Of a stretch of DNA of 64,000 bases, positions 10,144-44,557 are shown piece after piece. The notes beneath the pieces are model-generated. The model saw only the letters and a list, made by a program, of their open reading frames with translations. It was not told where the DNA came from and did no database searches. The translations under genes were made by a program, and so were the position numbers. Location of the stretch: the IMG/VR virus record IMGVR_UViG_3300025466_000012, positions 1 to 64,000 of that record. One strand, written 5' to 3'. Source of the stretch: a virus. Position 1 is the first letter of the stretch; every line of letters begins with the position of its first letter.

Positions 10144-12912
10144 ATGGCTAAACTGCTATCAGGAACCACCATATACGGTAATGCGGTCGTACAAACCTAC
10201 ATTACCGTCACAGGCAACGTCATCGGCGGTAACGTATTAGTTACCAGTGCTGGACAGATTAGTACAGCTGGCAACGTCTATGCTGGCAATACAATTATAG
10301 CTGGATCAGAATCGGTTGCTGGAAACATAACTGGTGGTAACATACTGTCGGGCGGTTTACTTAGCATCGCTGGTAATATTACCGGTGGAAACATACAGAC
10401 AGCCGGGCAGATATCGGCCACAGGCAATATCACAATACCACAAGGCAATTTCTTTATTGGTAATGGTAGTCAATTAACAGGCGTAACAGCGTCGAGTGTA
10501 AATGCCAATTCTCTCACTGGCAACACAATAAATTCAGGTGTCATTAACTCCAGTTTACAAAACTTTGGGCTGGTTACAGCAATCAGCGCCACAGGTACTA
10601 TCACTACCACAGGTAACGTGATTGGTGGTAACTTGGTCACAGGTGGTTTAATAACATCGGTTGGCAATATCACCGGCGGCAACATCATCAGTTTGGGCGC
10701 AATCACAGCCACAACCACTGTAAATGCAGCAGGTAATGTCACTGGCGGCAACATACTCACAGCCGGACAAGTAAGTGCTACTGCCAACGTCACTGGCGGC
10801 AATGTGCTGACAGCAGGACTGGTAAGTGCTACTGGCAACGTAACTGGCGGCAATATTACCACAGCTGGTGCTATAACAGCAACCGGTACCATTATTTCAT
10901 CTGCCAATATCACTGGTGGTAATTTGATAACAGGTGGATTGGTCAGCGTTGGCGGTAATGTAAACAGTGCTGGTGTAAACACTGGCTATATCAGCCAAAC
11001 TGGTAATTTATATGTTGGTGGTAATGCAAATATCATTGGTAATTTGAATGTTCAAGGCAATGTAACATTTGTCAACAGCAATGTGATCACTGTAAATGAT
11101 CTCTATATTGAACTGGCCAACAACGTCACCACCTATGCCAATGCCAATGCAGCTGGTTTAGCAGTTGGACCAACAGGTAACAGCCTGTTCAACTGGCAGT
11201 ATCTCAACTCGGCCAATGCTTGGTCAACCAACATTGGCATCAGTGCTCAAGGCAATGTAAACGGCGGAAATGTGATCACAGGTGGTTTGATAACAGCCAC
11301 CGGCACTATATCTGGTGGTAACATCAGTACAGCTGGTTATGTAAGTGCTGCGGGCAACATCTATGGTGGCAATTTGAGCGTGACTGGCAGTATCAACTTT
11401 GCCACAGTGACAGGTACTACAATTTCAGTAACCGGCAACGTGACGGGTGGAAACTTGTTGACAGGTGGTGGCATAAGTGCTGCTGGACAAATTTCAGCCA
11501 CAGCCAATATCACCGGTGGCAACATATTGACAGCAGGACTAGTAAGCGCCACGGGTGCCATCACTAGTGGTGCTAACATCACAGGCGCCAACATACTCAC
11601 AGCCGGCTTAGTAAGTGCTACTGCCAACGTGATTGGCGGCAACGTGCTGACAGCTGGTTTGATCAGCGCAACTGGTACTATTACCAGCAACGCCAACATT
11701 TCGGGTGCCAACGTTAATACAACAGGGCAGGTAAGTGCTACTGCCAACATCACTGGTGGCAACTTGTTGACAGCAGGTTTGATCAGTGCTACGGGTGCTA
11801 TAACCAGCGCAGCCAACATCACTGGTGGCAACGTGCTGACAGGTGGTTTGATCAGTGCCACAGGGGCTATCACAGCTGCCAATATTACTGGTAGCAACTT
11901 TAACACAGCAGGCCTAATCACAGCAACTGGCAACATCACTGGTGGCAACATAAACACAGCTGGACAAGTGGTTGCTACTGCCAACATAACTGGTGGTAAC
12001 TTGTTGACAGCTGGTTTGGCCAGCGTAGGCGGCAATTTGACTGCGGGCAACATACAGACAGCAGGTCAGATATCAGCCACAGGCAATATCACAGCAGCAA
12101 CTGGTGCGTACTTTGTTGGTAACGGTAGTCAGTTGACTGGTGTAACTGCAAGCAGTGTGAATGCTAACAGCTTGACCGGCAATACCATAAATTCAGGTGT
12201 TGTTAATTCCAGTTTGACCAATTTTGGTTTGGTCACAGCAATCAGTGCCACAGGCACAATCACTACCACAGGTAACGTGATTGGTGGCAATGTACTCACA
12301 GGCGGTTTGATCAGTGCTACAGGTGCCATAACCAGTGCAAACAACATTACCGGTGCTAATATACTCACAGCAGGCCAGGTAAGTGCAGGTGGCAACATTT
12401 ATGCACAAAACATCAGCGTAAGCGGCAACATCACTGGCAACATCAGCTTTGATACCACTATCAGTGCTGCCGGTAACATCATTGGTGGCAATTTACTGAC
12501 AGCTGGTTTGATAACAGCCACAGGCACCATAACTGGTGGAAATGTAAGCACTGCTGGCTATGTGACTGCTACTGGCAACGTGACCGGTGGTAATATTAAC
12601 ACAGCCGGACAGGTCAACGCAACTGCCAACGTAACTGGTGGCAACATACTCACAGCAGGACTAGTAAGTGCCACAGGTGCCATAACCAGCGCAGCCAACG
12701 TGACTGGTGGCAACATACTCACAGCTGGACAAGTAAGTGCCACTGCCAACGTAACTGGTGGCAACATAGCCACAGCTGGTCAGGTGACAGCAACTGGTAA
12801 CATAACAACCAGTGCATACTTGAATTTGGCCAACAGTGCCAATGCAAGCGGCCCAGGTGGACACATAATTTACAACACCAGCTTACAAAGTATAGACTTT
12901 ACATTCGGTTAA
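10144..12912 (+). CDS. Tail fibre protein (922 aa)
   Basis: GNITGGNILTAGLISAT repeats; ends SIDFTFG. Confidence 0.75.
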   Translation: MAKLLSGTTIYGNAVVQTYITVTGNVIGGNVLVTSAGQISTAGNVYAGNTIIAGSESVAGNITGGNILSGGLLSIAGNITGGNIQTAGQISATGNITIPQGNFFIGNGSQLTGVTASSVNANSLTGNTINSGVINSSLQNFGLVTAISATGTITTTGNVIGGNLVTGGLITSVGNITGGNIISLGAITATTTVNAAGNVTGGNILTAGQVSATANVTGGNVLTAGLVSATGNVTGGNITTAGAITATGTIISSANITGGNLITGGLVSVGGNVNSAGVNTGYISQTGNLYVGGNANIIGNLNVQGNVTFVNSNVITVNDLYIELANNVTTYANANAAGLAVGPTGNSLFNWQYLNSANAWSTNIGISAQGNVNGGNVITGGLITATGTISGGNISTAGYVSAAGNIYGGNLSVTGSINFATVTGTTISVTGNVTGGNLLTGGGISAAGQISATANITGGNILTAGLVSATGAITSGANITGANILTAGLVSATANVIGGNVLTAGLISATGTITSNANISGANVNTTGQVSATANITGGNLLTAGLISATGAITSAANITGGNVLTGGLISATGAITAANITGSNFNTAGLITATGNITGGNINTAGQVVATANITGGNLLTAGLASVGGNLTAGNIQTAGQISATGNITAATGAYFVGNGSQLTGVTASSVNANSLTGNTINSGVVNSSLTNFGLVTAISATGTITTTGNVIGGNVLTGGLISATGAITSANNITGANILTAGQVSAGGNIYAQNISVSGNITGNISFDTTISAAGNIIGGNLLTAGLITATGTITGGNVSTAGYVTATGNVTGGNINTAGQVNATANVTGGNILTAGLVSATGAITSAANVTGGNILTAGQVSATANVTGGNIATAGQVTATGNITTSAYLNLANSANASGPGGHIIYNTSLQSIDFTFG

Positions 12913-13560: not shown

Positions 13561-16500
13561 ATGGCAAATAGATTTCCGTTAATAGCTAATGCAACAGCTG
13601 ATCAAATACAAGAACTGGCCAGTGGGGATTTTTTAGATCTCAGCCAAAGCGGCATTGCCAACAGTGGCAATATCACCGTGGCCAGTGGCAGTTTCTATTT
13701 TGGTAACGGCAGCCAGCTCACTGGAGTCATAGCTGCAGATTCTGGTTTTCCAATCACAGCTGGCACTAGCAATTTAAACGCACCATCCAACGGCAACATC
13801 ACGGCCACAATAGGCGGTACTGGTGTAGTGGTCTGGGCCACTACCGGCGAATACGTTACTGGTCTTATATCAGCATCGGGCAATGTGACCGCTAGTCAAT
13901 TTAATGGATCTGGTGCAGGCCTGACCAGTATACCAGGTGCCAATGTGACAGGCACAGTGGCCAATGCCACATACGCAACATCGGCAGGGTCAGCAGTGGG
14001 CACTGCAGCCACGGTAACTGTCAATGCACAACCAAATATCACTTCAGTTGGTACCTTGACATCAGTAACATCGTCGGGTCTTGTATCAACCACAGGCAAC
14101 ATAGTTGGTAGCAATATTATAACCAGCGGAAGTGTGTTGCCCACAGCCAATGCCACACAAGACCTAGGATCACCCACATTACAATGGGCTCACCTTTATG
14201 TCAGTGGTAACAGTATCTATCTTGGCGGCGGTGCTCTTACTGCCAATGCTGGTCAGCTGTCTTTTTCTGGAAATGCTGTAGTCACAGCCAATGCCACAGG
14301 CGTTTCAAGCACAGTAGGAAATGTGGCTATCAGCGGCAATGTGCAAGGTGGCAACATACTCACAGCTGGCTTAGTAAGTGCCGGTGCCAATATCACAGGC
14401 GGCAACGTACTTACAGCTGGATCAATCTCAGCCACTGGCAATATCACTGGCAATTATATTATTGGTAACGGCAGCCAATTAACCGGTGTAACTGCAAGCA
14501 GTGTGAATGCCAACAATTTGACTGGCAATACTCTTGCTAGTGGTGTAATCAACTCCAGCTTGACAAATTTTGGTCTAGTCAGCTCAATCAGTGCTACTGG
14601 TACTATCAGTACTGGCGGCAACGTACAAAGTGGCAACGTCCTAACTGGTGGTTTGATCAGTTCAACTGGCAACATAACCGGCGGCAATGTTGGTGCTACT
14701 ACTATAACTGCAACCACAGTAACAGCAAGTGGCAATGTGTATGCTGGAAATCTTGTCAATTCGGGCAGTTCTAGTATAACCGGAAATATCACAGCTGGCA
14801 ACATACTTACAGCAGGCTTGATAAGCGCCACTGGTACAGTAACCGCTAGTCAGTTTAATGGATCTGGTGCAGGCCTGACCAGTATACCGGGTGCCAATGT
14901 GACAGGTACAGTGGCCAATGCCACTTACGCAACATCGGCAGGGTCAGCAGTAGGTACCGCGGCCACAGTGACAGCCAATGCACAACCAAACATAACATCT
15001 GTTGGCACACTTACATCAGTAACATCATCGGGCTTGATTTCAACCACAGGTAATGTGGTTGGTAACTATATCTTGGGCAATGGTGCACTTTTAACTGGTG
15101 TGATCACCAGCGTGGCCAACATCAACAACGGCACTAGCAATGTGACCGTGACTGCGTCGGGCGGCAATATCACTGTGGGTGTGAGTGGTGTGGGCAATGT
15201 GGCGGTATTTGCTCCAACTGGAGAATATGTAACTGGTATAGTCAGCGCCTCGGGCAACATTGTTGGAGGCAATATATTAACAACTGGATTGATTAGCTCA
15301 ACTGGTAATGCTATACACGGCAACATACTTACAGCTGGGTTAATTAGCTCAACTGGTAATATTATTGGTGGTAACATCGCTACGGCCGGGTTGATTAGCT
15401 CAACTGGTACAGTAACCGCTAGTCAATTTAATGGATCTGGAGCTGGCTTGACCAGTATACCAGGTGCCAATGTGACAGGCACAGTGGCCAATGCCACTTA
15501 CGCGGTCAGTGCTGGATCAGCAGTGGGCACTGCAGCCACCGTGACAGCCAATGCACAACCAAACATAACATCAGTTGGTACCTTGACATCAGTAACATCG
15601 TCGGGCTTGATTTCAACCACAGGTAATGTGGTTGGGGCCAATATCAACACAACTGGGTTGGCCAGCGTTGGAGGCAATTTGTATGTGGGCGGTAGCGCCA
15701 ACATTATTGGCAACCTGAACGTACAAGGCAATGTCACATTTATCAATTCAAATGTAATCACAGTCAACGATCTCTACATCGAATTGGCCAACAACGTCAC
15801 TACCTATGCCAATGCCAATTCGGCTGGTTTAGCAGTTGGACCAACAGGCAGTACATTATTTAATTGGCAGTATCTCAATTCGGCCAATGCTTGGAGCACC
15901 AACATTGGCATTACTGCTACCGGTAACGTTACCGGCGGCAACATACTTACGACTGGGTTGATCAGTGCTGCTGGCAATCTTGCAGGTGGCAACCTGTTGT
16001 TGACAGGCACTATTAGTACATCAGGAAACAGTCAAGCAGCCAGCTACAGTGCCAGTGGCAACATAACCGGTGGCAATATAAACACAGGTGGAGTAGTTAG
16101 TGCCACAGGTAACGTTTATGTGGCTAATCTAATCAATAGCGGATCTGAAACCGTCACCGGTAACATAACCGGTGGCAATATAAACACAGGTGGACGTGTT
16201 ACAGCAGTTGGTAATGTTATAGCAGCCGGGTTCCAGTATGCCAATGGGACGCCTGTACAAGGATCGGGCGCACAAGGTACTACGGGTACTACTGGATCGC
16301 AAGGAACAACAGGAAGCCAGGGCACTGCTGGAACAAATGGCAGTCAAGGAACAACAGGCACACAAGGCACAGTCGGAACACAAGGTACTGTGGGTGCTCA
16401 AGGTACTGTGGGTGCTCAAGGTACTGTGGGTGCTCAAGGTGCTACAGGCTCAGCAGGAAGCCAGGGCACTGTAGGAGCTCAAGGTACTGCCGGAACAAAT

Positions 16501-17226
16501 GGCAGTCAAGGTACAGCTGGAACAAATGGCAGTCAAGGAACAACAGGAAGCCAGGGTACTGCTGGAACAAACGGAAGCCAAGGTACAGCTGGAACAAATG
16601 GTAGTCAAGGAACCACAGGTACCACAGGTAGCCAAGGTACTGCTGGATCAACAGGTAGCCAAGGTGCCACAGGCCCAAGCACAGCAATCAATGCCACCGC
16701 AGTCACAACTGGTACATTTTATCCAGTATTTGTGGCTAGTGCTGGGTCAAATCAAACTCCCAGCGTGCGGACCACTGCCACAGCATTCAGCATCAATGCT
16801 GCTACCAATGTGCTCACAGTCACAGCAACCACAGCGCAATATGCCGACTTGGCAGAATGCTACGCAGCCGATACCGACTACGAACCAGGCACAGTTATGG
16901 TATTTGGTGGTGCCAATGAAATCACTATCAGCAATTCTGCTAGCGATCCTGCCATAGCTGGGGTGGTATCTACCGAACCAGCACACCTCATGAACGGATT
17001 CCAGAGCGGAGAAAATGTGTTGCCAATTGCCCTGGTTGGTCGCGTGCCGTGTCGGGTGGTTGGACCCATAGTCAAAGGTGATCGACTTGTAACTGGAACT
17101 GTTCCAGGAACAGCAGTCAAATTGGATCCGGCGCAGTACCAACCCGGTTGTCTAATCGGTAAAGCCCTACAAGATTACGACAGTGCCACGCCAGGTGTGA
17201 TTGAAATATCCGTAGGTCGCGCCTGA
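13561..17226 (+). CDS. Tail fibre with collagen-like segment and C-terminal Peptidase_G2-like (intramolecular chaperone) domain
   Basis: ATAAATA at 13534; G-X-Y run; YADLAECY...GTVMVFGG...GVVS...ALVGRVPCRV...KGD.L...IGKAL. Confidence 0.8.
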   Translation: MANRFPLIANATADQIQELASGDFLDLSQSGIANSGNITVASGSFYFGNGSQLTGVIAADSGFPITAGTSNLNAPSNGNITATIGGTGVVVWATTGEYVTGLISASGNVTASQFNGSGAGLTSIPGANVTGTVANATYATSAGSAVGTAATVTVNAQPNITSVGTLTSVTSSGLVSTTGNIVGSNIITSGSVLPTANATQDLGSPTLQWAHLYVSGNSIYLGGGALTANAGQLSFSGNAVVTANATGVSSTVGNVAISGNVQGGNILTAGLVSAGANITGGNVLTAGSISATGNITGNYIIGNGSQLTGVTASSVNANNLTGNTLASGVINSSLTNFGLVSSISATGTISTGGNVQSGNVLTGGLISSTGNITGGNVGATTITATTVTASGNVYAGNLVNSGSSSITGNITAGNILTAGLISATGTVTASQFNGSGAGLTSIPGANVTGTVANATYATSAGSAVGTAATVTANAQPNITSVGTLTSVTSSGLISTTGNVVGNYILGNGALLTGVITSVANINNGTSNVTVTASGGNITVGVSGVGNVAVFAPTGEYVTGIVSASGNIVGGNILTTGLISSTGNAIHGNILTAGLISSTGNIIGGNIATAGLISSTGTVTASQFNGSGAGLTSIPGANVTGTVANATYAVSAGSAVGTAATVTANAQPNITSVGTLTSVTSSGLISTTGNVVGANINTTGLASVGGNLYVGGSANIIGNLNVQGNVTFINSNVITVNDLYIELANNVTTYANANSAGLAVGPTGSTLFNWQYLNSANAWSTNIGITATGNVTGGNILTTGLISAAGNLAGGNLLLTGTISTSGNSQAASYSASGNITGGNINTGGVVSATGNVYVANLINSGSETVTGNITGGNINTGGRVTAVGNVIAAGFQYANGTPVQGSGAQGTTGTTGSQGTTGSQGTAGTNGSQGTTGTQGTVGTQGTVGAQGTVGAQGTVGAQGATGSAGSQGTVGAQGTAGTNGSQGTAGTNGSQGTTGSQGTAGTNGSQGTAGTNGSQGTTGTTGSQGTAGSTGSQGATGPSTAINATAVTTGTFYPVFVASAGSNQTPSVRTTATAFSINAATNVLTVTATTAQYADLAECYAADTDYEPGTVMVFGGANEITISNSASDPAIAGVVSTEPAHLMNGFQSGENVLPIALVGRVPCRVVGPIVKGDRLVTGTVPGTAVKLDPAQYQPGCLIGKALQDYDSATPGVIEISVGRA
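16267..16680 (+). repeat. Collagen-like (G-X-Y)n, including 18-bp CAAGGTACTGTGGGTGCT tandem units
   Basis: Gly at every third residue over about 46 triplets. Confidence 0.9.
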
Positions 17227-40020: not shown

Positions 40021-41580
40021 ATGGCCGACGAAGCCAATCTAGTCAAGGCGCCACATCGGCGCCAGACCTACACCGAAATCCAGCTGTCAGAATTTGTGGC
40101 CTGTATGGATCCAGTCACAGGTCCGCACTACTTCATGGATAATTTTTTCCATATCCAGCATCCAACCAAGGGCAAGATGCTGTATCGGGCGTTCGACTAT
40201 CAAAAACGCCTGATTGACACCTATCACAACTACAGATACAGCATCAGCATGATGCCTAGACAGACTGGTAAAAGTACCAGTGCTGCCGGTTATTTGCTAT
40301 GGATGGCCATGTTTCGCCCAGACAGCACCATCTTGATTGCTGCACACAAGTACACTGGTAGCCAAGAGATCATGCAGAGAATACGTTATGCCTATGAGCT
40401 GTGTCCGGATCATATCCGTGCCGGTGTGACCAGCTACAACAAGGGCAACCTGGACTTTGAAAACGGGTCAAGGATAGTATCGACCACTACAACAGAAAAT
40501 ACCGGTCGTGGTATGAGTATCACACTCCTGTACTGTGACGAGTTTGCATTCGTGCGTCCCACCATAGCACGCGAGTTCTGGACTTCGATCAGCCCTACCT
40601 TGGCCACTGGTGGTAAAGCCATCATTACCAGCACCCCCAACTCAGACGAAGATCAATTTGCCTTGATCTGGAAAGGAGCCAATCGATGTGAAGACAGCTA
40701 CGGCAATCCTACCGAGATCGGCATCAATGGATTTAGAGCTTATAGAAGCTACTGGAACGAACATCCAGATAGAGATGAACGTTGGGCCTCAGAACAGCGA
40801 GCCCAGCTGGGAGACGATCGTTTCCGGCGCGAAATGGGTTGCGAATTCTTGATCTACGAAGAGACCTTGATAGCACCAGCCAAACTGGTAGACATGACCG
40901 GAATTGATCCGGTCGCGACCATAGGACAAGTGCGATGGTATCAGACACCCAAACCGGGACGTATCTACACTGTGAGTCTGGATCCCAGTCTGGGCACCGG
41001 TGGCGACAATGCGGCCATACAGATATTTGAAGCCAATACCACCGAGCAGATAGGCGAGTGGAAACACAACCGGACAGCCATACCTGAACAGATACAACTG
41101 CTGGCATCGATCTGCGCCCATATCAACGAAACAGTAAAAAATCCTGAAAACATCTACTACAGCGTGGAAAACAACAGCATAGGTGAAGCAGCCTTGGTCA
41201 GCTTGCAACAGTACGGTGAAGAAAACATCAAGGGCTATTTTTTAAGCGAAAGCGGAGCTGCTGGCCGCACGTATAGAAAAGGGTTCAATACCACACACAA
41301 GAGCAAGATAGCTGCCTGCTCCAAACTCAAGACCTTGATCGAAACCGGCAAGATGAAGATACGCAGCAGGCCTTTGATCAGCGAACTCAAAACCTTTGTG
41401 GCAGCCAAGATGAGCTATGCGGCCAAAATTGGTGAAAGCGACGACTTGGTCATGGCCACCTTGCTGGCTGTACGAATGATGCAACAGCTACAAAACTATC
41501 ATCCTGAAATGGACCGTCAGTTGAGAGATTTCAGCGACAACCTGATTCCACCAATGCCATTTGTGGCCACATTACGATAA
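40021..41580 (+). CDS. gp17: Terminase large subunit
   Basis: PRQTGKST (Walker A), LLYCDEFAF (Walker B), SLDPS and DDLVMA nuclease motifs. Confidence 0.95.
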   Translation: MADEANLVKAPHRRQTYTEIQLSEFVACMDPVTGPHYFMDNFFHIQHPTKGKMLYRAFDYQKRLIDTYHNYRYSISMMPRQTGKSTSAAGYLLWMAMFRPDSTILIAAHKYTGSQEIMQRIRYAYELCPDHIRAGVTSYNKGNLDFENGSRIVSTTTTENTGRGMSITLLYCDEFAFVRPTIAREFWTSISPTLATGGKAIITSTPNSDEDQFALIWKGANRCEDSYGNPTEIGINGFRAYRSYWNEHPDRDERWASEQRAQLGDDRFRREMGCEFLIYEETLIAPAKLVDMTGIDPVATIGQVRWYQTPKPGRIYTVSLDPSLGTGGDNAAIQIFEANTTEQIGEWKHNRTAIPEQIQLLASICAHINETVKNPENIYYSVENNSIGEAALVSLQQYGEENIKGYFLSESGAAGRTYRKGFNTTHKSKIAACSKLKTLIETGKMKIRSRPLISELKTFVAAKMSYAAKIGESDDLVMATLLAVRMMQQLQNYHPEMDRQLRDFSDNLIPPMPFVATLR

Positions 41581-41590
41581 ATAATAAATC

Positions 41591-44557
41591 ATGGCAAAAG
41601 AAACTATTGGAAAAAAACTCTACGATTTGCTGGCCACCCGGGACTATGACAACTTCCAGGCCCTGGACAGCGCCACTGGCAAGGTACCCGTAGATCCCAA
41701 AACAGGTGCACAGAATGTGGGCGAAGCCAACATGTTTGTGTTTGACTGGAGCTCCAGTCGCGGCAAAAACTACGGTACTGCTGTGATCTTGTTGACCGAC
41801 GATCATGATCTTGAACTGTACTTTGGCGACAACCTAGGCAAGACCATGGAAGATCGCGAAGACAAAAACGAGTGGTTTGCATTCATGGAGCAGCTGAGAC
41901 ATTTTGCCACACGTACCAATTTCAACGGATTCAGACCGCTCAACATCAATCAACTGAGACACAGCCTGCAAGGGCAAGCTGCCATCCGGGAAGGACTTTT
42001 TGAAAGCTGGCAAGGTCGCAAGAACATGAGCTGGAACGGTGTGGCCACCGAAGCCAGACTCATGATACGTCACAAAAGAGACCTTGGACCCGACGAAGCC
42101 AGACACAGATATGTGGAGAGCCTGTTCATTGAAACAGCAGAAGGTGAACGTTACAAATTGCCATTTGTGAATCTAGGCGGTGGCAAGGCCATGCTGGAAC
42201 ATGTGCGCCAGGGTGGCAGACCCTACGATACAAGAGGTCAACACATAGCCAACATGATCCAAGAGATCAATATTTTGAGCAGATTTGAACGCAGCGTGGC
42301 CGGCGATGCCTTGATGGAAGGCGATACTGCGCAACTGGTGACCGAAGCTCACGGGTACAAACACAGTCTCAAAACCAATCTCAAACGTCTGGCTACCGGA
42401 CGCGGATACGCAGACTATTTTGAATCATGGAATCCGGCCAGCATCACTGAGCAAGATGTGGTAGTGGAAAGTCTCAAGCAACTGTTTGTAAAACAGACTC
42501 TGGACACCAGGATTGAACAAGCACTGCCGTTACTGGCAAAGATACAACAACAAGGACAAGCTATGAAAGAAGCCACGATATTTGAAGCCTGGGCCAACCG
42601 CCTGGTAGAAGGAACCTGGAGCCTGCCGGACACTCCAGAAAAACAGCAACAGCTGATAGATTTTATGAGCCAGGAACAACCGGTTGGTGCCGATGCTACA
42701 GATGCCACTGAGCAACTGTATGACATCCTGGGCGATGATCAGTTGTTTGATCGACTGAGTGAGTTGGCCGATCAGCACCCTGACAGCGATTGCCGCCAGT
42801 TGGTTCTGGACCGCATGCAGGAACTCAGCGATGATCCAGATGTGCGAGAGGCCTTGGAAAAACTCAATGTCAACACAGATGCTACCATGCACCCAGCGGC
42901 GGCTACTCCAGCCGATCTAGGCGGTGATAGCGATGGCGGCGACATCGATGAAAGCATGAGTGACCACCAGCATCATGTGTGGACTGTGCATTTTGCCGAC
43001 GGAACCCAGCGTCGTGTACCAGTAGGCAGCGATGAATTTGATTACGAAATCAAACGTATCCAGGATCATTTTGCCAAACAGGGACTTGAAGTGGTTGACG
43101 TGGACACAGATACTGCCATACACGGTGAACCACCCGCTGAACCAGAAGATTATGAAAAGACCGAAGGTGTCGCAGAAGGTCATGCAGACCAACAACGCAA
43201 AGTGTTTAAGAAGAATGGCAAGCCAGTAGGCGAAGTCGGTATTGACCGTGAATCGAGCCCAGGTGTTGGTCAGTATTACATGAAGCATTATGCTAGTGGT
43301 AAAGATTTGTCTGGGTATGATTCATACGAAGAAGCAGTAGCAGAACTAAAACATTGTCTAAAACAAGGTGTCGCAGAAGGTCATGCAGACCAACAACGCA
43401 AAGTGTTTAAGAAGAATGGCAAGCCAGTAGGCGAAGTCGGTATTGACCGTGAATCGAGCCCAGGTGTTGGTCAGTATTACATGAAGCATTATGCTAGTGG
43501 TAAAGATTTGTCTGGGTATGATTCATACGAAGAAGCAGTAGCAGAACTAAAACATTGTCTAAAACAAGGTGTGGCGGAAGGCTCAACTACACGAGGTGGG
43601 TTTGGTGGTTCAGCCAGTCAAGCACATCACGAAATTGAATGGCTTAAGAATAAGATTGAAACACTGAAACCGTTGTTGACCAAGAAACCCGGTGTTGCTC
43701 GTCAAATACGAGATTTGGAAAGACAGATCCGTGAGAGAGAACTGGCTATGGCATATCACGATCAAGGTGTGGCGGAAGATGCAATCCAATCTTTACGCAG
43801 AGCCGCTGGCTTGAATGAAAATGTGTTACGTGATAGCACCGGCAGCACACTGGATCATATTGCTGATAAATTCAAACGTGACATCCGAGATTTTGAAGCC
43901 ACAGGCAATCTCAGTGATGATTTGTTTGACGCACTATACGATTATTACCAAGATGACATGCCATACGGTGTACAAAAAGCTCGCTCGGGCGATCCGCACG
44001 ATTGGATCGCAGATCGAATCACTCAAGACTTAGGGTTACAACCAACCGATCTTGATCCGTTTGAAAAATTCAAATTGCGTAATAACGCAGCTCGTGACCA
44101 AGCAGGCATGCCACCCAATCCAGATTTCCAAGAAGAACGTGATCCACATTCGGTAGATGGCGGCATGGCCAATGCGTTGTTGGCTGACGATGCCGTCTGC
44201 AACATGAGCGATCATGGTCATCATTGCCCGGTACACGGAATTGAAGAATGTTGGGGTGCTGAATCCATGCCCGGTATGGAAGAAGGCGCAGTTGGAGCTG
44301 TAGCAGGTGCAGTACTAGCTCCTGAACTGGGACCACTGGCCAGCCGTGTTGGTAGCATGGCACAAGATGCCATGACCGATTCAGATGACGACCTTGACGA
44401 AGAAGGATTTGGTCTCAACCCAACTCCGGCAGCCATGGAAGAAGAACGCAGTCCGTTGGCTGGCATATATGGACATTCGGGCAAGATGAAGGAAGTGGGC
44501 CGTGACGTCGGCTTTTTGGACAGACTGAAAGAGCTGGCCGGCATGCGACAGGCATAA
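41591..44557 (+). CDS. 988-aa hypothetical protein with internal GVAE-bounded modules, putative head-internal protein
   Basis: ATAAATA at 41577; acidic; internal exact duplication. Confidence 0.7.
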   Translation: MAKETIGKKLYDLLATRDYDNFQALDSATGKVPVDPKTGAQNVGEANMFVFDWSSSRGKNYGTAVILLTDDHDLELYFGDNLGKTMEDREDKNEWFAFMEQLRHFATRTNFNGFRPLNINQLRHSLQGQAAIREGLFESWQGRKNMSWNGVATEARLMIRHKRDLGPDEARHRYVESLFIETAEGERYKLPFVNLGGGKAMLEHVRQGGRPYDTRGQHIANMIQEINILSRFERSVAGDALMEGDTAQLVTEAHGYKHSLKTNLKRLATGRGYADYFESWNPASITEQDVVVESLKQLFVKQTLDTRIEQALPLLAKIQQQGQAMKEATIFEAWANRLVEGTWSLPDTPEKQQQLIDFMSQEQPVGADATDATEQLYDILGDDQLFDRLSELADQHPDSDCRQLVLDRMQELSDDPDVREALEKLNVNTDATMHPAAATPADLGGDSDGGDIDESMSDHQHHVWTVHFADGTQRRVPVGSDEFDYEIKRIQDHFAKQGLEVVDVDTDTAIHGEPPAEPEDYEKTEGVAEGHADQQRKVFKKNGKPVGEVGIDRESSPGVGQYYMKHYASGKDLSGYDSYEEAVAELKHCLKQGVAEGHADQQRKVFKKNGKPVGEVGIDRESSPGVGQYYMKHYASGKDLSGYDSYEEAVAELKHCLKQGVAEGSTTRGGFGGSASQAHHEIEWLKNKIETLKPLLTKKPGVARQIRDLERQIRERELAMAYHDQGVAEDAIQSLRRAAGLNENVLRDSTGSTLDHIADKFKRDIRDFEATGNLSDDLFDALYDYYQDDMPYGVQKARSGDPHDWIADRITQDLGLQPTDLDPFEKFKLRNNAARDQAGMPPNPDFQEERDPHSVDGGMANALLADDAVCNMSDHGHHCPVHGIEECWGAESMPGMEEGAVGAVAGAVLAPELGPLASRVGSMAQDAMTDSDDDLDEEGFGLNPTPAAMEEERSPLAGIYGHSGKMKEVGRDVGFLDRLKELAGMRQA
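43164..43572 (+). repeat. Tandem duplication of a 201-bp (67-aa) unit
   Basis: Units start at 43164 and 43365; identical translations GVAEGHADQQRK...LKHCLKQ. Confidence 0.95.

Follow-up and report, generated by a model that had tools for sequence, protein, structure and literature searches.

In 1996, de Chateau and Bjorck (PNAS 93:8490; cited in PMC3962080) reportedly described 'recer' sequences between the domains of Gram-positive surface proteins (protein PAB and protein G) and proposed that they permit modules to be shuffled without introns. Short demarcating motifs are also found in polymorphic toxins, where they are VENN in CdiA and PxxxxDPxGL in Rhs (PMC3150448). In bacteriophage T4, the internal proteins IPI, IPII, IPIII and Alt are diverse small proteins sharing a conserved tag that is removed by the prohead protease gp21 (PMC3012670; PMC5694885; PMC9391042), and polyvalent proteins string together known conflict-related enzymatic domains and in many cases include an MPTase peptidase (Iyer et al., 2017; PMC5512222). 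Here we describe P0001, an open reading frame (ORF) of 988 amino acids (aa) in which small modules are separated by an in-frame repeat, the joint, encoding (Q/E)GVAE(G/D). P0001 lies in the first 64 kb (hereafter the window, which is the whole stretch of DNA analysed) of the 199,683-bp IMG/VR record IMGVR_UViG_3300025466_000012 (G000), which has an estimated completeness of 58%. The best overall explanation, to which we would give a probability of about 0.6, is that the joint operates at two levels, as a DNA homology handle and as a putative protease site.

Exactly four copies of the joint motif AAGGTGTSGCRGAAG are present in the window, on the + strand at 43164, 43365, 43566 and 43764, for an expectation of 0.00 from dinucleotide-preserving shuffles. 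All four are in frame within the 988-aa ORF and read TEGVAEG, KQGVAEG, KQGVAEG and DQGVAED, with joints 3 and 4 in a canonical spelling and joints 1 and 2 in a variant one. Positions 43164-43364 match 43365-43565 at every one of their 201 nt (100% identity; Tandem Repeats Finder period 201), and module 3 is unrelated to the duplicated module 1, called m1 (no tblastn cross-hit; separate segment families). An earlier interpretation made from the letters of this DNA alone, here called the sequence-only reading, had reported the same four motif sites, the identical 201-bp modules, the unrelated third module and the shared frame, and this description is borne out in full. An AlphaFold2 (AF2) model of m1, with a predicted local distance difference test score (pLDDT) of 79.5, shows a compact four-strand-plus-helix domain with disordered joint residues. 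The best VIA match to this fold has a Z of 6.3, to 6d7k_H (MmoD), which is below a meaningful level, and a search of BFVD gave only an uncultured-phage homologue of it. With at least two canonical in-frame joints, and with m1 and module 3 (m3) both recurring elsewhere bounded by joints, P0001 is a QGVAEG-joint cassette protein.

The canonical joint is a 17-mer, CAAGGTGTGGCGGAAGG, which was found in at least 119 IMG/VR contigs. All but one of its 156 unique sites (155) encode QGVAEG within open frames that are 100 aa or longer, and the spacing between 17-mers is a multiple of 3 in 40 of 42 cases. Codon usage was determined at 34 junctions not adjacent to m1, in loci fetched by protein patterns and not by the DNA motif, with the same ORFs serving as background. 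The joint Gly codon is GGT in 31 of 34 (background 45%), Val is GTG in 28 of 34 (background 22%), Gln is CAA in 26 of 26 (background 67%) and Ala is GCG in 28 of 32, against a background of 6.5% (binomial p ~1e-29, for sites that are phylogenetically non-independent). As an internal control, chance GVAE tetrapeptides that lack the preceding Q or E are spelled with other codons. The canonical spelling is shared by a phage whose N-terminal domain is only 31% identical (G002), and the variants tolerated are GTC GCA, and TCG for Ser. The pattern is nevertheless unambiguous. Since a rare Ala codon is fixed, protein function alone is insufficient as a cause; the simplest cause suggested by these spellings would be that the joints are copies of one another, kept alike by recombination. 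An RNA hairpin at the joint was considered and rejected, as inspection of the sequence showed no part of the 17-mer to be self-complementary and no relation between its flanks.

A motif search of the whole record located two further copies outside the window, at 180809 and, with one mismatch, at 181478, both in frame in a single second ORF of 707 aa. This ORF (G000 ~179932-182055; L005:624-2747) opens with a leader, MNLFDFFED, that resembles the capsid targeting sequence (CTS) of T4, and its junctions are KDQ-GVAE-G and SKQ-GVVE-G. Its C-terminal module contains Cys (KTRLDP.CW...VRVNNC) and recurs in many other polyproteins.

The modules, too, occur in many proteins. When proteins are clustered at 50% identity, 271 cluster representatives carry m1; they range from 56 to 1648 aa, and the module may stand anywhere in them, often at 80-100% identity. 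Over 98 m1 instances, the columns between the opening QGVAE and the closing QGVAEG, these joints included, show high identity, and those immediately outside are at background (0.06). Homologues with N-domains 24-53% identical to that of P0001 have m1 copies at 73-91% identity. For example, an unrelated 1494-aa polyprotein with six joints and the leader MNLFDLILNE (L032) carries m1 and m3 side by side, with the module 3 copy after m1 being 87.5% identical. The 150 m1-bearing proteins sampled hold 362 joints, of which 242 are QGVAE and 245 are followed by Gly, at spacings of mostly 40-110 aa; cutting the sampled proteins at their joints gives 418 distinct segments in 282 families. Almost none of the segments is recognised by Pfam, and the modules match no known fold, family, enzyme or toxin. 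Recent transfer was rejected as a general cause of the high m1 identity, as copies that differ by ~20% in DNA are ~90% identical in protein, which shows that strong purifying selection acts too. A free-standing small m1-related gene is also present in the record outside the window (G000 82459-82554; 59% identity over 32 aa, E 2.5e-8), and so the m1 domain exists outside polyproteins too.

Close relatives of the locus allow the breakpoints to be placed. P0002, P0003 and L008 come from essentially the same phage as P0001, and their differences are confined to the middle of the protein. P0002 (921 aa) is 100% identical to P0001 and has a single module 1, P0003 (876 aa) has flanks 99% identical to P0001 and a different middle without a joint, and the DNA of L008 stays 99% identical through 43379 and bears no relation to that of P0001 from 43380 on. 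The homology tract that L032 shares with the window starts at 43124 and ends at 43778. Three of the five breakpoints from close comparison fall inside a joint, namely the duplication crossover, 43379/80 and 43778/79.

Joint 2 is a hybrid, with the left flank AAACAA of joint 3 and the core and right flank GTCGCAGAAGGTCAT of joint 1, giving the diagnostic sequence AAACAAGGTGTCGCAGAAGGTCAT; in L032 a single m1 lies between a joint spelled as joint 1 (GTC GCA) and one spelled as joint 3 (GTG GCG). The hybrid middle joint indicates an unequal crossover within the shared AAGGTGT. Tandem amplifications at microhomologies of 6-10 bp are known from T4 (PMC9391042). The single-copy 921-aa form was found on 9 contigs plus two further entries and the 988-aa form on 3 contigs, and a diverged adjacent m1-m1 tandem pair occurs in P0123.

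The proposal of the sequence-only reading that the repeat serves as a recombination junction is well supported by the conservation at silent sites, by homology that ends at the joint in ~100 independent contexts, by the hybrid crossover joint and the single-copy allele, and by the 99%-identical L008 diverging at a joint. Overall, we regard the cassette and recombination part of the explanation as very probable. The architecture would consist of small, independently folding cassettes between the conserved N- and C-domains, and CAAGGTGTGGCGGAAGG is a lineage-wide 17-nt element punctuating hundreds of phage proteins. From this pattern in the DNA we infer that the joint acts as a portable homology patch for the phage recombination machinery, and that recombination at joints can duplicate, delete or swap whole modules in frame. 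The 201-bp duplication would be a fresh example, produced by unequal crossover in the AAGGTGT of two joints flanking one m1.

The recer sequences and the demarcation motifs of polymorphic toxins are the closest genetic analogues. As with recer, conserved DNA lies between domain-coding segments and is proposed to let whole modules be shuffled in frame between genes; recer, however, is bacterial, has other sequences, involves few modules and has no link to a protease site, whereas here a single 17-mer is found at hundreds of phage sites. The likeness to polymorphic toxins lies in a short conserved peptide at the border of conserved and variable parts, in orphan cassettes that carry the motif and in chimeras joined there. 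Polymorphic toxins have one variable C-terminal toxin and an immunity gene, whereas module arrays are found here; P0001 has the motif, no toxin domain by Pfam and, downstream, a gp32-like single-stranded DNA-binding protein (SSB) gene rather than an immunity gene.

At the protein level, the prohead proteases of T4-type phages, phiKZ and SPN3US all cut after Glu (PMC5694885). Peptidase S77, the family of T4 gp21 (PF03420), was detected well above the Pfam cut-off in four relatives (G005, G007, G002 and G003), one of which (G005) is 78% identical to G000 at the P0001 N-domain, and the protease is present in every related record that has a capsid gene. A protein search with the G005 protease also found a homologue in G011. 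This gene (L236; G011:C1:100203-100823, - strand) has one in-frame TAA in an otherwise 66%-identical match, which could be a sequencing error, a pseudogene or recoding. Leaders like the T4 CTS open 60 of 143 m1-bearing proteins (42%) and 27 of 535 background ORFs (5%), and some abut a joint directly, as in MKITDIITENTQ-GVAE-G and MRINEILVEQ-GVAE-G. Furthermore, of 62 homologues, 59 have [LIVMF]-x-E just before the C-domain, whatever the DNA spelling, and the boundaries are diverse in both peptide and DNA (GVAE, GVTE, VIAE, DIKE, RLAE). As the spellings differ and the pattern is kept, the boundary independently points, at the level of the protein, to a need for hydrophobic-x-Glu in this place.

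The sequence-only reading had also matched the joint to the specificity of a gp21-type protease. With the S77 proteases of relatives, the CTS-like leaders ending in GVAE and the conserved hydrophobic-x-Glu in its favour, and the lack of a protease gene in the G000 record against it, this claim is plausible, and cleavage of the joint by a gp21-type prohead protease is the outcome that these sequence data moderately favour. The joint would then be a disordered, exposed V-A-E/G site (the slash marking the cut) for a Peptidase S77 enzyme, which inside the prohead would split the protein into its N-domain, ~7-kDa modules and C-domain. The best guess for the freed modules is that, much like the internal proteins of T4, they may be packaged in the head and injected as cargo.

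The internal-protein system of T4 is the closest functional counterpart. In both cases a T4-type phage encodes small (~70-190 aa), highly diverse proteins, otherwise unrelated proteins share a short conserved stretch with hydrophobic-Ala-Glu at its end, and a gp21-family protease is present in the lineage; moreover, many joint-bearing proteins open with leaders resembling the T4 CTS, MKTYQEFIAE. The T4 internal proteins are separate genes with a single N-terminal tag each, whereas many modules with the same flanking joint share one frame here, and the joint, unlike the T4 tag, keeps one silent-site spelling even in distant phages. P0001 also differs in being large, in having conserved N- and C-domains of its own and in lacking a CTS-like start, and packaging, cleavage and injection are putative for it. 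Polyvalent proteins and the ejection proteins of phiKZ and SPN3US (PMC5694885) are likewise multi-domain, head-packaged and thought to be cut into functional units, and the prohead protease cuts after Glu. Polyvalent proteins contain known enzymatic domains and often their own MPTase, and are not known to share a linker fixed in its DNA; by Pfam, P0001 has neither an enzymatic domain nor an MPTase, and related polyproteins have only DUF6321. None of these systems has the combination of one-frame cassette arrays, a joint silently fixed across distant phages and a likely capsid-protease site.

Several observations weigh against the two-level explanation. Two of the five close-range breakpoints are off-joint (43124 and ~43636), and the junction sites are not phylogenetically independent, so that binomial p-values overstate significance. 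The sequence-only reading would have counted conserved flanks, with variable modules joined at the repeat in every case, as support; the homologues do have such flanks and a hypervariable middle between them, but a joint is present in only ~25 of the best 120 homologues and the middle is variable in all of them. The joint is therefore unnecessary for variability and represents one route among others. In addition, the exact duplication could be an assembly product. As regards cleavage, the 58%-complete record lacks prohead protease and capsid genes of its own, which we read as a missing head module and not as a true absence. P0001 itself has no CTS-like leader and starts with MAKETIGKKLYDLL, the regular expression for CTS-like leaders was written post hoc, after inspection of the data, and T4 gp21 prefers Leu or Ile at P3, not Val.

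Among the alternatives, the one that survives best is that the joint is an uncleaved flexible linker, so that the protein would be a beads-on-a-string virion component in which a recombination-friendly spacer separates decorative or binding domains. The disorder of the joint and its flanking Gly fit this, as do the missing leader of P0001 and the lack of matches between modules and enzyme or toxin families, and recombination suffices to explain the conservation of the DNA. A pure linker would have no need of a fixed V-A-E, however, nor does it account for the retention, despite differing DNA, of Glu and the hydrophobic residue two before it at the C-domain boundary, for the CTS-like leaders that adjoin joints or for an S77 protease in the lineage. 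On balance we consider it unlikely.

Alternatively, the 17-mer might be kept for another function as nucleic acid, either as the target of a site-specific nuclease or recombinase by which cassettes are mobilised or as a signal in mRNA such as a translational pause at domain borders. Conservation at silent sites across phages with 31% identical N-domains, the fixed rare codon GCG and a Shine-Dalgarno-like AGGTG would all be accommodated. Against this, the cassettes are not accompanied by a nuclease or recombinase gene, the motif always stands in the single reading frame that gives QGVAEG, and the spelling variants GTC GCA and TCG for Ser are tolerated, which together make such a function improbable. 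Moreover, the crossover needs just 7 nt of identity, as in T4 (PMC9391042). Lastly, an ordinary or artefactual tandem duplication, with a repeat expanded during assembly and four motifs that coincide locally by chance, would suit the 100% identity of the copies, whose 201 bp exceed the length of many short reads, and a single-copy form that is commoner in databases, but it is very improbable given the massive replication of the motif system elsewhere, a hybrid joint of the kind predicted from a real crossover, the 988-aa form on 3 contigs and the existence of diverged tandem m1 pairs, and joints 1, 3 and 4 and the cassette system stand even without a real second copy.

Returning to the two-level joint, a bolder extension is a recombinase-free, integron-like cassette system inside reading frames, in which the 17-nt element would be both the homology handle by which T4-like giant phages move hundreds of mini-protein families from gene to gene and from phage to phage, and the prohead-protease site that frees each of them in the capsid as injected cargo for anti-defence or host takeover. 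We hold this extension to be possible, at somewhat under even odds. The effector role of the modules, also put forward in the sequence-only reading, is tentative and rather doubtful. If the two-level explanation is true, a virus can shuffle whole domains in frame by means of a DNA-identical linker, with no need of introns or a dedicated recombinase, and the fresh duplication, together with its hybrid joint and the single-copy allele, shows that mechanism directly at work. It would also reveal a large unexplored pool of small phage proteins, with 282 module families of no known fold or family in the sample alone. These modules may enter the host with the DNA like the T4 internal proteins, which would make them candidates for new anti-defence functions. 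The joint could also provide a natural design rule for the loading and release of cargo in T4-type capsids.

Table 1. Features of the P0001 locus, in window coordinates.
Feature	Position	Strand	Remarks
terL, large terminase subunit gene	40021..41580	+	stop 10 nt before the start of the 988-aa ORF
P0001, 988-aa ORF, virion-protein family gene	41591..44557	+	directly downstream of terL
Conserved N-domain, residues 1-445	41591..42925	+	defined by conservation across homologues
Module 0, residues 446-525	42926..43165	+	acidic tail ending EPPAEPEDYEKTE; diverged relatives in other polyproteins
Joint 1, E-GVAE-G	43164..43178	+	variant spelling GTC GCA
Module 1 (m1) copy 1, 67-aa beta4-alpha domain	43166..43366	+	
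Joint 2, Q-GVAE-G, hybrid	43365..43379	+	left flank as joint 3, core and right flank as joint 1
Module 1 copy 2	43367..43567	+	identical to copy 1
Joint 3, Q-GVAE-G	43566..43580	+	canonical spelling CAAGGTGTGGCGGAAGG
Module 3, 66 aa, predicted helical	43568..43765	+	unrelated to m1
Joint 4, Q-GVAE-D	43764..43778	+	family-conserved hydrophobic-x-Glu site before the C-domain
Conserved C-domain, residues 726-988	43766..44557	+	starts at GVAE of joint 4; DAxxSLRRAAGL block from residue 730

P0001 belongs to a virion-protein family (Table 1). Tail sheath, tail tube and head-closure genes lie upstream of terL and P0001, and the gp32-like SSB gene downstream is followed by that of the UvsX recombinase. 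P0001 matches PHROG 13484 ('virion structural protein') with an E of 8.3e-9 at residues 137-278, and its N-domain fits the family profile. A distant homologue is gp278 of phage PA5oct (tblastn E 5e-13, 27% identity), which according to the annotation of the PA5oct record was detected in virions by mass spectrometry. The nearest cultured relatives, PA5oct and Rak2-like jumbo phages, are very distant, with 27-31% identity over residues 130-325 only. Among cultured phages, the gene has no nucleotide match, m1 was not found by tblastn and distant matches are limited to the N-domain; no laboratory model turned up there. P0001 is probably a virion protein of an uncultured T4-like jumbo lake phage.

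Homologues of P0001 number more than 2000, and the best 120 span 616-1442 aa, with the hypervariable middle between the conserved N- and C-domains. The AF2 model of the N-domain has a pLDDT of 70.5; Foldseek found nothing for it in the PDB at E<=0.001, its best match VIA-wide has a Z of 6.8 and covers a helical hairpin only, and a profile search against PDB sequences gave no match. P0001 likewise has nothing above the cut-offs in Pfam, and eight polyproteins searched against Pfam gave only DUF6321 plus sub-threshold noise. DUF6321 (PF19846) is a rare catalogued domain occurring as a cassette, near the C-termini of L032:880-5361 and L034:1087-2373.

Two further observations concern the related genomes. 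Although it is rated 99% complete, the 342,865-bp record IMGVR_UViG_3300032268_000986 (G001) also lacks the highly conserved major capsid gene and the prohead protease of its relatives, and completeness ratings seem unreliable in this group of phages. Between G005, G003 and G002, the major capsid proteins share 80-91% identity (G005 gene: L187:14487-15683), far more than the terL-adjacent N-domain, which is only 31-53% identical between G000 and G002 or G003; this indicates that the P0001-type virion protein evolves unusually fast. Elsewhere in the window, some very large ORFs that precede the tail sheath gene contain long in-frame tandem repeats at 1981-2438, 10738-12806 and 16330-16673, with periods of 87/174, 51/120 and 9/18/27/72 nt, respectively, which are probably fibre or collagen-like tail-fibre repeats.

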